This document shows, piece by piece, positions 259 to 4,584 of a stretch of 10,802 nucleotides of DNA. Location: IMG/VR virus record IMGVR_UViG_2698536392_000023, positions 1 through 10,802 of that record; one strand, 5' to 3'. The DNA is from a virus. Lineage: Duplodnaviria > Heunggongvirae > Uroviricota > Caudoviricetes. A program made the translations under genes and the position numbers. The stretch's first letter is position 1. The number at the start of each line of letters is the position of its first letter. The notes under the pieces were generated by a model that was not told the origin of the DNA, searched no databases, and saw nothing but the letters and a program-made list of their open reading frames with translations.

Positions 259-451
259 GAATCCTCCCGGCCGGGATAATATTGTGAGTAAAATGAGGAG
301 CGGGCTGAAATCCGGAAGTTACAGGACAATGGCAGAAGAGAGACAACAGCCCGCAATACGAAAAAGGCCGCGCTATTGCGCAGAGTGATTACTGTCGGAT
401 ATTATTCGCCAGCTGAAATATTACTTCACGTTTTGTTGTTTATTCCTTGCC

Positions 452-480
452 GCCCGCGTCTCCCTGCGCGGGCTTTTTTT
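452..480 (+). terminator. Rho-independent terminator-like hairpin (GCCCGCG-N8-CGCGGGC followed by T7), plus-strand orientation
   Basis: 7-bp GC-rich stem 452-458/467-473, 8-nt loop, T-run 474-480. Confidence 0.5.
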
Positions 481-491
481 GTCCATAAGAA

Positions 492-511
492 AGCCCCTCC
501 GGAGAGGGGCT
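492..511. other. 8-bp perfect inverted repeat AGCCCCTC-CGGA-GAGGGGCT; with the 452-480 hairpin forms a back-to-back hairpin pair
   Basis: Arms 492-499 and 504-511 are exact reverse complements; on the minus strand it is followed by TTCTTAT. Confidence 0.45.
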
Positions 512-707
512 GGAGAGTGGCGCTATGTGCCATTGCATGGTGCCGGGTGCCTCCCGGTGAATTCAGTACCAGCACCTGAATCCGCGATTATCCCATATAC
601 CTACTCGCTGATTGCCCCTCCGCACAGGGGGATTCACCATGCCAGTTTCTTTTAACAAACTCCCCGCAAACCAGACAACAGTCAACCGCCTGAATTGTGA
701 GACATTT

Positions 708-733
708 AAAAAAAAGGCCCGCAAAAGCGAGCC
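708..733 (-). terminator. Rho-independent terminator immediately after the tRNA cluster
   Basis: Minus-strand read GGCTCGC-TTTT-GCGGGCC followed by T8 (plus A-run 708-715); 7-bp stem with one G-U pair. Confidence 0.75.
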
Positions 734-747
734 AGGGAAAATAAGTG

Positions 748-824
748 TGGCGCGTTGTACTGGATTCGAACCAGTGACCGATTGCTTAGAAGGCAATTGC
801 TCTGTCCGGCTGAGCTAACAACGC
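748..824 (-). tRNA. tRNA-Arg, anticodon UCU (reads AGA)
   Basis: Reverse complement GCGTTGTTAGCTCAGCCGGACAGAGCAATTGCCTTCTAAGCAATCGGTCACTGGTTCGAATCCAGTACAACGCGCCA folds as a cloverleaf: perfect 7-bp acceptor stem, GCTC/GAGC D-stem, anticodon loop CTTCTAA, T-loop TTCGAAT, encoded CCA. Confidence 0.85.
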
Positions 825-837
825 ATGATGCATATAA

Positions 838-914
838 TGGACCGCCATCGGGGACTTGAACCCCGCGCAGCCAGCTTCGAAGGCTGGCGCTCTTTCCTGA
901 TGAGCTAATGGCGG
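838..914 (-). tRNA. tRNA-Arg, anticodon UCG (reads CGA)
   Basis: Reverse complement CCGCCATTAGCTCATCAGGAAAGAGCGCCAGCCTTCGAAGCTGGCTGCGCGGGGTTCAAGTCCCCGATGGCGGTCCA: 7-bp acceptor stem CCGCCAT/ATGGCGG, anticodon loop CTTCGAA, T-loop TTCAAGT, encoded CCA. The 5' nucleotide is C, which is unusual. Confidence 0.75.
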
Positions 915-921
915 TATGTGA

Positions 922-997
922 TGGTGGACCTTGCTGGATTTGAACCAGCGGCCTGGCGATTATGAGTCGCTCGCTCTCACCACTGAGCTAAAGGGCC
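922..997 (-). tRNA. ileZ: tRNA with anticodon CAU; body resembles the Ile2 (lysidine, ileX/ileZ-type) class rather than Met
   Basis: Reverse complement GGCCCTTTAGCTCAGTGGTGAGAGCGAGCGACTCATAATCGCCAGGCCGCTGGTTCAAATCCAGCAAGGTCCACCA; anticodon loop CTCATAA, T-loop TTCAAAT, encoded CCA. Acceptor position 3-70 is a C/T mismatch. Ile2 versus Met isotype is from recalled similarity and phage context. Confidence 0.75.
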
Positions 998-1032
998 GGG
1001 AGCAGAATAATAACGGTCCGTAATTAATTCCG

Positions 1033-1060
1033 CAATAAAAAACCCGCTCGGCGGCGGGTT
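1033..1060 (-). terminator. tR'-like intrinsic terminator downstream of the late promoter
   Basis: Minus-strand AACCCGC-CGCCGA-GCGGGTT followed by TTTTATT; sits about 45 nt downstream of the candidate -10. Confidence 0.65.
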
Positions 1061-1107
1061 GTAGAAACTCTTCTAATGTCAGGCATAAAAAGCCCATCGT
1101 TATGACG

Positions 1108-1135
1108 AATTTACCACAGATTCCGGAAAAATCAA
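1108..1135 (-). promoter_or_regulatory. pR'-like late promoter (Q-modified), sigma70-type
   Basis: Minus-strand TTGATT (plus 1130-1135), 16-nt spacer, TAAATT (plus 1108-1113), immediately downstream of the Q-like stop codon at 1141. Confidence 0.55.
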
Positions 1136-1140
1136 CCTTG

Positions 1141-1962
1141 TTACCTAGTTACCTTTTTTAACTGCCGCTCAGCCCATGCTTCTTCAATATCAAACCGGGT
1201 CACCAGCGCATCATAGAATTTCTTAACTGTTTTTTCCCATGACGCGCGTGTTATCTGGTTTGTCACCTCGCATATAGCATTAAATGCCTCCGTTGATGGT
1301 AGTCTTTTATAGCCACGACCACCACAACGCTGGCAGTCTCTGATAACAGGCATACCACGTTTTACCGACTCTTCACGGTAAAGGGCGACACCACGCCCAC
1401 GGCAATCCTTACAGGCGGTGTAAACCTCACCCTTTCCGCCACACTCCGGACAGGCAACTTTTACCACCTCCCTGACTTTTTTCCATTCTTCCCAGTAAGA
1501 CGGATACACACCTTTCGTACACTTTGCCCATACCGGCGGCTTACCATCCGGATACTGGACCTTGTTTGTAAAAACTACGCTTTCAATAAATTTTTCCCCA
1601 TAGCAACAAGGGCACTGCTTTTTACTCGCTGCGCTGCGGGCATAATCCTCAAAAGCGTACGAAGCCATAATGCGCATCACTAACGGTTTTATTTCTGCCG
1701 GAAGTTTTCTCAACGCCGCCACACGATCGCACCGACTGAGTGCATAATCTGCCAGTAATTCTGTTGCCCGCGCCCTGTCATTCATACTGATGCCCATTTT
1801 CCCCAGGAACGCAGAAAACCCCATCTCAGCCCGATTCTGTGTCATGCTCTGCGCGGCCATCACATCAGTGATACTCAGCGCATCTTTTGACGTTGAGGCC
1901 GATGCATCGGTCAGGCAAGGGGATTTTGGGGAGTAGTATTTCGGTAAATCTTCCAGTTTCAT
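1141..1962 (-). CDS. Q-like late antiterminator (273 aa) with three CxxCxGxG zinc-finger motifs
   Basis: Complete ORF; position directly upstream of the pR'/tR'/tRNA block and downstream of rusA; motifs CPECGGKG, CKDCRGRG, CQRCGGRG; start ATG overlaps the rusA stop (ATGA). Confidence 0.65.
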   Translation of the reverse strand: MKLEDLPKYYSPKSPCLTDASASTSKDALSITDVMAAQSMTQNRAEMGFSAFLGKMGISMNDRARATELLADYALSRCDRVAALRKLPAEIKPLVMRIMASYAFEDYARSAASKKQCPCCYGEKFIESVVFTNKVQYPDGKPPVWAKCTKGVYPSYWEEWKKVREVVKVACPECGGKGEVYTACKDCRGRGVALYREESVKRGMPVIRDCQRCGGRGYKRLPSTEAFNAICEVTNQITRASWEKTVKKFYDALVTRFDIEEAWAERQLKKVTR

Positions 1963-4253: not shown

Positions 4254-4409
4254 TTACTCCTCAGGTTCGTAAGCTGTGAAGACAGCGACCTCCGTCTGGC
4301 CGGTTCGGATTCGTACCTCGCAGAGGTCTTTCCTCGTTACCAGTGCCGTCACTATGACGGTAATACAGATGACGATCAGGGCGATTAACATCGCCTTTTG
4401 CTGCTTCAT
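4254..4409 (-). CDS. hokD: Hok/Gef-family type I toxin (51 aa), closest in my memory to HokD/RelF
   Basis: MKQQKAMLIALIVICITVIVTALVTRKDLCEVRIRTGQTEVAVFTAYEPEE; SD AAGGAG upstream of ATG at 4409. The ORF-track entry 4254..4466 is the same frame extended to an upstream ATG. Confidence 0.85.
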   Translation of the reverse strand: MKQQKAMLIALIVICITVIVTALVTRKDLCEVRIRTGQTEVAVFTAYEPEE

Positions 4410-4422
4410 AGCCTGCTTCTCC

Positions 4423-4451
4423 TTGCCTTTCGGCGCGTAAGAGGCTAACCT
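4423..4451 (+). promoter_or_regulatory. Candidate promoter for a sok-like antisense RNA
   Basis: Plus-strand TTGCCT (4423-4428), 17-nt spacer, TAACCT (4446-4451); predicted transcript runs antisense across the upstream in-frame ATG (4466) and its GAGG SD. Confidence 0.35.
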
Positions 4452-4584
4452 ACATGTGTCTAGCATGAAATTGGCCTCAGATTAATGTTAGGCGTCTTGC
4501 AGGACGCGTAATGTTAACTGGGGCTTTTCTCTGTCTGCCTTACGGTGGCATGCCCGAGGCAGACAGCCTCAAGCACCCGCAGCA

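Follow-up and report, generated by a model that had tools for sequence, protein, structure and literature searches.

The closest described counterpart of the locus analysed here is the tRNA cluster of the Stx phage 933W, for which all our comparisons are based on the GenBank record NC_000924. In that record, ileZ, argN and argO follow one another with the anticodons CAU, UCG and UCU, downstream of Q, pR' and terminators, with a putative tRNA promoter (pT) annotated before ileZ, a terminator annotated after argO, and stx further downstream. The description of the trio reportedly goes back to Plunkett et al. 1999, and a search for ileZ, argN and argO within the collection of papers covered found nothing relevant. 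Phages SfI, Sf6, ST64T and P21 carry tRNA genes in the same slot, just after Q, and the same role has been proposed for them, namely the supply of codons that are used more by the phage than by the host (PMC3636060). These genes encode other tRNA species (e.g., Asn-GUU and Thr-UGU), however, and are unrelated in sequence to ileZ-argN-argO. On the K-12 chromosome, two separate genes have anticodons in common with the cluster. The first, ileX (CAU; presumed codon AUA), shares the C4-G69 and C5-G68 pairs, A73, the anticodon loop and the T arm with ileZ but differs from it at at least 8 positions, while argU (UCU; presumed codons AGA/AGG) agrees with argO in A20, G73 and the anticodon loop but differs from it in every stem. 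Whereas ileX and argU are chromosomal, ileZ and argO are accessory and prophage-borne, and argN has no chromosomal counterpart.

We analysed a stretch of viral DNA of 10,802 nucleotides (hereafter, the window), for which an earlier note made from the sequence had claimed three tightly packed tRNA genes and had proposed to verify them with a tRNA predictor and against 933W. Both checks bore the claim out. In the 10.8-kb window, ARAGORN called three tRNA genes and no others, at the positions and with the anticodons given before, all of them on the minus strand, which the note had left unstated, and the comparison with 933W identified them as ileZ, argN and argO (Table 1). All three were likewise called by the Rfam tRNA family RF00005, with cmscan E-values of 1e-10 to 5e-14, scores above the gathering score of 29, and a cloverleaf. 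The spacers of 7 and 13 nt could be confirmed by reading the minus strand, as UCACAUA between ileZ and argN (921-915) and as UUAUAUGCAUCAU between argN and argO (837-825). Each gene encodes its 3' CCA and contains the universal nucleotides U8, A14, G18G19, U33, T54-T55-C56 and A58. Two open reading frames, 563-796 on the minus strand and 612-818 on the plus strand, were dismissed as spurious, given their overlap with tRNA and sRNA genes.

Table 1. Positions of the tRNA genes and the surrounding late-region elements in the window.
Feature	Position	Strand	Details and basis
Q-type late antiterminator gene	1141..1962	-	273 aa; PF03589 'Antitermination protein Q', 174.7 bits; PGAP 'antitermination protein'
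pR', lambda-like late promoter and pause element	1093..1135	-	-35 TTGATT 1135-1130, 16-nt spacer, TG-extended -10 TAAATT 1113-1108, AACGATGGG 1101-1093; alignment with lambda Q-to-orf-64 intergenic region
tR' intrinsic terminator	1034..1060	-	strong; stem 1060-1041, 7-bp, then TTTTATT; terminator scan
pT, putative tRNA promoter	1007..1035	-	TTGCGG 1035-1030, 17-nt spacer, TATTAT 1012-1007; homology to 933W feature
ileZ	922..997	-	anticodon CAU; ARAGORN; Rfam RF00005, 67.0 bits
argN	838..914	-	anticodon UCG; ARAGORN; Rfam RF00005, 58.0 bits
argO	748..824	-	anticodon UCU; ARAGORN; Rfam RF00005, 70.1 bits
Cassette terminator, intrinsic	708..733	-	GGCTCGC-TTTT-GCGGGCC then T8; terminator scan

Upon aligning the individual genes with those of 933W, we found identity at 74 of 76 bases for ileZ, 73 of 77 for argN and 76 of 77 for argO. 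The two differences in ileZ are U47C and G70U. The four in argN fall at positions 17 and 20a of the D-loop, which are A17 and A20a in the window, at position 57 and at position 63, where the T-stem has a G51-C63 pair in the window and G.U in 933W. The single difference in argO is A37 in the window versus G37 in 933W. The spacer between ileZ and argN measures 7 nt in the window and 9 in 933W, while that between argN and argO is 13 nt in both; Stx2a_F723 has the same anticodons (ARAGORN) and the same spacers, 7 and 13, as the window. Homology between the window and 933W starts at pT and stops just past the terminator, with unrelated flanks on the Q/pR'/tR' side and downstream. The window encodes a 273-aa Q followed by a lambda-like pR' and thus differs from 933W in its Q and pR'/tR' type, and in place of stx it has the sRNA STnc100 and a DUF6645 pseudogene with an internal stop (PGAP). 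Gene order and spacing, homology, and the location downstream of Q, pR' and terminators, with pT before ileZ and a terminator after argO, are nevertheless those of the 933W-type cassette; what is missing is stx immediately downstream, a typical but non-defining trait of Stx phages. The trio is one more copy of a familiar set of rare-codon tRNA genes, the ileZ-argN-argO cassette of Stx-type lambdoid phages, here located in a decayed E. coli prophage. This supports the reading of the earlier note, and as a finding the trio is real but already known and ordinary.

A peculiarity was seen on the side of 933W. Its argO (L003 in our locus numbering, 2296-2372) and those of related Stx2a phages carry G37, found in 9 of 103 full-length viral copies extracted with ARAGORN. 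This is odd for a tRNA reading codons that start with A, for which t6A37 is expected; the A37 of the window is the canonical base.

The prophage itself could be located in a sequenced host. Bases 400-1400 of the window are matched by the chromosome of E. coli 2013C-4830 at 100% identity (1,001 bases compared), within a Rac-like lambdoid prophage that adjoins potC in the PGAP-annotated locus. In gene order, racR is followed by replication genes, hokD, RusA and the antiterminator, after which come the three tRNAs, the DUF6645 pseudogene, and then holin, lysozyme, terminase and portal. The integrase is truncated, the DUF551, DUF968 and DUF6645 genes are frameshifted or interrupted (PGAP), and no stx genes were found in the examined stretch of this prophage. 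The source is a defective, stx-less lambdoid prophage, in which the Q gene provides the context that defines the late operon. The long (273 aa) Q protein also gave a sub-threshold match to a DnaJ-type CXXCXGXG zinc finger (29.9 bits vs a cut-off of 32.7) that overlaps the Antiterm domain. Elsewhere in the window, a hok/sok type I toxin-antitoxin module lies at 4254-4578 on the minus strand, where the sok RNA (RF01794, 116.9 bits, 4578-4404) overlaps a hokD-type ORF that PGAP names hokD.

Situated downstream of Q and the lambda-like pR', the cassette was found to occupy a slot that has tR' directly upstream and the late genes on its other side. Both promoters were identified by homology, pR' to lambda and pT to 933W. 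The window and the lambda Q-to-orf-64 intergenic region have GGTAAATT-N6-AACGATGGG in common; this lambda stretch, unannotated in the lambda record, we take to be pR' with its pause-inducing element. The putative promoter pT, homologous to the 933W feature 'pT; putative tRNA promoter', ends 9 nt before ileZ. Among 113 viral copies, 105 keep the -10 hexamer TATTAT in register and most have a TTGNNN -35, while the spacer sequence is variable. A sigma-70 promoter scan of 300-1300 called no promoter; as its threshold was 9 of 12 hexamer positions and pR' and pT each match 8/12, both were missed. At the other end, the terminator after argO is homologous to the one annotated upstream of stx in 933W and is conserved across viral copies. 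In pairwise alignments of 110 IMG/VR copies, the identity to the window rose from ~0.4-0.5 to 0.8-0.9 at ~1037 and stayed high through 733-708. In a Stx2a lysogen, a primary transcription start driving the ileZ-argN-argO tRNAs has been mapped (PMC7547250). The conservation from pT through the terminator, together with this mapped start, indicates that the cassette is likely an autonomous unit of ~330 bp, in which the three tRNA genes are enclosed by a weak putative sigma-70 promoter (pT) on one side and an intrinsic terminator on the other. The earlier note had assigned the trio to a Q-dependent late transcript. Its position downstream of Q, the lambda-like pR' and tR' agrees with that assignment, but given the promoter-like pT, the terminator and the start mapped in the lysogen, the tRNAs are probably expressed constitutively from pT, with Q raising the level, so that their expression would not depend purely on Q.

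The surroundings of the cassette are rich in short RNA elements. The terminator scan returned 8 terminator-like sites in 300-1300 versus 1.4 expected. Downstream, a full-length STnc100 sRNA (481-671, minus strand; RF02076, 138 bits) directly follows the tRNA cassette and, with its own terminator at 511-492, occupies the slot that stx has in Stx phages; additional strong intrinsic-terminator hairpins at 452-473 (plus strand) and 368-383 (minus strand) separate STnc100 from the DUF6645 pseudogene, which starts at 258 on the minus strand. Among the IMG/VR cassette copies, 45 are STnc100-like (stx-less, as in the window) and 43 are of other kinds. Upstream, the predicted leader RNA from pR' to tR' (1034-1101, minus strand; ~67 nt) is analogous to lambda 6S RNA or StxS and shows a weak, sub-threshold match (19.6 bits vs a gathering score of 50, E = 0.14) to isrK, an Hfq-binding sRNA from Salmonella prophages. 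The leader of Stx phages acts as the regulatory sRNA StxS (PMC7547250), and by analogy the one predicted here could be a regulatory sRNA too.

For the CAU tRNA, ARAGORN gave the label 'Met' from the anticodon alone. We rejected this label, as the gene aligns with K-12 ileX and not with metT, and PGAP annotates it as tRNA-Ile. It has the pairs C4-G69 and C5-G68, A73 and C29-G41, where metT instead has U4-A69 and A5-U68. Both acceptor pairs are required by E. coli TilS (PMC1635315), and tRNA-Ile2 determinants were also drawn from a second source (PMC9976931). We presume ileZ to be of the tRNA-Ile2 type, lysidine-modified and reading AUA. The C3/U70 acceptor mismatch on which the earlier note had remarked is present in the sequence and is also flagged in the cmscan alignment. 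The U70 allele occurs in 4 of 5,426 complete E. coli genomes, all with the same prophage region, and in 0 of 115 IMG/VR copies, every one of which carries G70; in Rfam, the window ileZ falls 5.5 bits short of the 933W allele (67.0 vs 72.5 bits). Hence, C3/U70 (G70U) is a rare private mutation of this prophage lineage and not a feature of the family, probably slightly harmful or neutral in a redundant copy. It may weaken the window ileZ and, being adjacent to the TilS determinants, could affect the binding of TilS or IleRS. A different alteration was encountered at another locus (L055), which has an ileZ-type tRNA with the anticodon CGU (A35G).

The UCG tRNA indeed begins with C1-G72, as had been claimed and as can be read directly from the sequence, and this pair, U73 and U15/G48 are the oddities of argN relative to K-12 Arg tRNAs. 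The cloverleaf, with all stems paired, is its fold of minimum energy (-35 kcal/mol, z = -2.85), and the identical allele is present in 117 E. coli records. Neither argN nor argO has a broken pair in the window, and both score slightly higher in Rfam than their 933W counterparts (58.0 vs 54.8 bits for argN, 70.1 vs 68.1 for argO); argO with A37 is the commonest allele of its family (52/107 copies). Both tRNAs have A20, which is invariant in the alignment with K-12 Arg tRNAs, as well as C35 and G36/U36, and A20, C35 and G36/U36 are the main ArgRS determinants (PMC9976931). The discriminator is G73 in argO and U73 in argN, whereas the chromosomal E. coli tRNA-Arg genes that we fetched have A73 or G73. 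Because U73 is listed among the bacterial Arg determinants in Table 1 of the same source (PMC9976931), U73 of argN seems compatible with arginylation. From their anticodons, argO is predicted to read AGA (and AGG), and argN to read CGA and probably CGG.

Quantifying variation across the family, we observed a clear gradient between the three genes. Among copies that are not independent, since many come from related prophages, diversity per site was 0.007 for ileZ, 0.023 for argO and 0.058 for argN (0.074 outside the 17 nt fixed by the search). Broken stem pairs were present in 0 of 76 copies of ileZ (beyond a family-wide A27/C43 mismatch), 20 of 99 of argO and 36 of 110 of argN, and A58G was found in 29 of 110 argN copies. 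Of the three genes, argN is by far the least conserved and the one under the weakest constraint. Its UCG anticodon is nonetheless kept in >120 copies vs 3 variants in the family; in scans for anticodon variants most matches were unrelated tRNAs, and the 3 family members that were altered (L150, L164 and L169) comprise two argN-type tRNAs with UUG and one with UCU. Furthermore, a sub-lineage of argN accounting for ~20% of copies (within L004-L123, e.g., L008, L012, L023 and L056) combines A6/A67 and A52/C62 mismatches with A58G and looks like a decaying allele, still accompanied by intact ileZ and argO. With an unusual body (C1-G72, U73, U15/G48) and rapid change beside a nearly frozen ileZ, argN might conceivably be more than a rare-codon helper, either as a nuclease-resistant substitute for host tRNA-Arg attacked by anticodon nucleases or colicin D, or, through constitutive expression from pT, as a rewirer of CGA/CGG decoding in ~1/4 of E. 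coli strains, a speculation to which we lend little credence. Such rewiring, if true, would change how strongly horizontally acquired genes are expressed, also in the absence of prophage induction.

The cassette proved to be widespread. In 5,426 complete E. coli genomes, argN-type sequences were found in 1,208 with a 77-nt query (1-5 places per genome) and in 1,424 with a 98-nt query (1-7 places), and ileZ-type sequences in 3,046 (1-12 places). A UCG tRNA-Arg is thus carried by ~22-26% of complete E. coli genomes, always through the ileZ-argN-argO family. The order CAU-UCG-UCU is kept in 104 of 121 argN-containing loci, and the spacer pair (7,13) is the commonest in IMG/VR (70 loci). The host 2013C-4830 has 4 argN-type and 7 ileZ-type places; the window copy is therefore redundant, with 3 other argN-type and 6 other ileZ-type places elsewhere on the chromosome. 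An argN pattern scan with one genome per species matched only two MAG contigs (L124 and L125, one binned as Collinsella), which we attribute to bins contaminated with E. coli prophage DNA; the scan argues against argN being core anywhere, while it is uninformative on taxonomic breadth. The K-12 Arg tRNAs that we fetched have the anticodons ACG, CCG and UCU, and K-12 presumably also has a CCU tRNA-Arg. From the K-12 anticodons, the species scan and the genome counts, we conclude that UCG is absent from the core genome and common as accessory prophage cargo. The claim that the host does not encode UCG holds for the K-12 Arg tRNAs fetched, and is to be amended for 2013C-4830 by its three further argN-type places.

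We then compared codon usage, in occurrences per 1,000 codons, between the prophage and its host (Table 2). Prophage genes overall are enriched 2-11-fold in AUA, AGA, AGG, CGA and CGG relative to 45 host core genes, a small set including several translation, fatty-acid-synthesis or flagellar genes, so that this and the following fold values are probably overstated. Early genes exceeded the host set 5.9-fold for AUA, 7.7-fold for AGA, 10-fold for AGG, 4.5-fold for CGA and 2.9-fold for CGG, each with a p of 1e-5 or lower. The late genes did so 8-fold for AGA, 11-fold for AGG, 4.7-fold for CGG and 2.3-fold for CGA, whereas AUA was not enriched in the late genes of this prophage relative to the same 45 genes; in stx2AB of 933W, AUA is 22-fold enriched. 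CGA enrichment is strongest in the early genes, and CGG, AGA and AGG dominate the late ones. The enrichment in AUA, AGA and CGA for which the earlier note had proposed to look thus exists in full in the early genes, and in the late genes for AGA and CGA but not for AUA. The bias fits rare-codon supplementation, including by argN on CGG and CGA, without proving it, and rare-codon enrichment is typical of horizontally acquired DNA in general.

Table 2. Codon usage (occurrences per 1,000 codons) in the host, the prophage and 933W; the late set comprises intact genes.
Gene set	AUA	AGA	AGG	CGA	CGG
45 host core genes	1.7	1.0	0.8	2.7	4.7
Prophage early genes	10.2	7.7	8.2	12.1	13.5
Prophage late genes (intact)	2.9	8.2	8.7	6.3	21.7
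933W stx2AB	36.8	14.7	4.9	4.9	7.4

The best explanation, to which we assign a probability of roughly 0.85, is that the locus is a 933W-type ileZ-argN-argO cassette in a defective, stx-less prophage that supplements rare-codon tRNAs. Gene identity, anatomy, conservation, distribution and codon bias were observed for the cassette, while transcription in this prophage, processing, modification, charging and any translational benefit of the tRNAs are inferred. In the lysogen, the trio would be transcribed at a basal level from pT, and after induction, Q-modified RNA polymerase starting at pR' would pass tR' and the cassette terminator and yield more tRNA. RNase P and 3' trimming would release three CCA-ending tRNAs. 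Of these, ileZ would be lysidinylated by the host TilS to read AUA, argO would read AGA/AGG, and argN, with a U34 that is found in no core E. coli tRNA-Arg, would pair with CGA in Watson-Crick fashion and with CGG by wobble. The trio as a whole would add to the tRNA supply for codons which E. coli seldom uses but prophage genes use often.

The state of the prophage raises the question of whether the cassette, or at least the ileZ with C3/U70, is a decaying relic that no longer aids translation and persists pending deletion. The truncated integrase and the broken DUF551, DUF968 and DUF6645 genes point in this direction, as do the ileZ U70 allele, which is private to 4 genomes, seen in 0/115 viral copies and 5.5 bits under the 933W allele, the 6 other ileZ-type and 3 other argN-type places in the host, and the many argN copies elsewhere with stem-breaking or A58G changes. 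We consider this unlikely, as argN and argO have no broken pairs, with argO represented by the family's commonest allele, the pT hexamers and the terminator are intact, and ileZ suffers from one acceptor-stem mismatch, with which a cloverleaf is still possible and C4-G69 and C5-G68 are untouched. Phage tRNAs can evade tRNA-targeting defences, and colicin D cuts tRNA-Arg. The trio might accordingly serve as counter-defence, replacing host tRNA-Arg or tRNA-Ile hit by anticodon nucleases (e.g., colicin D) or tRNA-targeting defences, with rare-codon supply secondary. Two of the three tRNAs are arginine acceptors, the body of argN is atypical (C1-G72, U73, U15/G48), and the rate at which argN evolves is ~8-10 times that of ileZ next to it, as might result from an arms race. 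Yet the anticodons coincide exactly with the rarest codons of E. coli, those over-used in prophage genes, much of the argN variation breaks stems or conserved positions and looks like relaxed constraint rather than adaptation, and no nuclease was identified in the window, all of which makes such a role improbable.

Two further explanations concern the position of the cassette. Wedged between a short pR'-tR' leader and STnc100 and the late genes, and with the leader of Stx phages being the regulatory sRNA StxS (PMC7547250), the tRNAs could serve chiefly as sites where RNase P / RNase E cuts the pR' leader from the downstream late and sRNA transcripts. A mere processing signal would need neither conserved anticodons nor conserved identity elements, however, and with its own putative promoter and terminator the cassette does not need the longer transcript, so that we judge this very improbable. 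A preprint (10.64898/2026.05.13.724894) interpreted tRNA hits near the prophage sRNAs Pas/STnc100 as integration hot spots, and tRNA genes are used as integration sites by many phages, from which the matches here could be remnants of chromosomal tRNA att sites and not phage cargo. But the trio is internal, between Q and the lysis and morphogenesis genes and far from both prophage ends, the genome record of 933W and those of numerous other phages contain it, a putative promoter and a terminator of its own flank it, and its genes differ from the chromosomal ileX, argU, argX and argQ. We rejected the att-remnant reading, which we regard as barely credible, on the grounds that the trio sits inside the prophage and inside complete phage genomes.

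Overall, the rare-codon cassette brings no new biology at this locus, its annotation dating back to the 933W genome and PGAP assigning the labels as a matter of routine. The refinements lie in its autonomous promoter-terminator layout, the private ileZ mismatch, its redundancy in the host, and the relaxed constraint on argN. The cassette is also a useful landmark, showing where the late region of a lambdoid prophage begins and which slot stx or sRNAs such as STnc100 are inserted into. Since the tRNAs beside STnc100 in the window are phage cargo, the hot-spot inference of the preprint may need revisiting, and tRNAs beside prophage sRNAs would be read as cargo rather than as integration scars. 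ACG-anticodon tRNAs are inosine-modified. The UCG tRNA-Arg, carried by ~1/4 of complete genomes, would offer E. coli its only route to CGA without inosine wobble.
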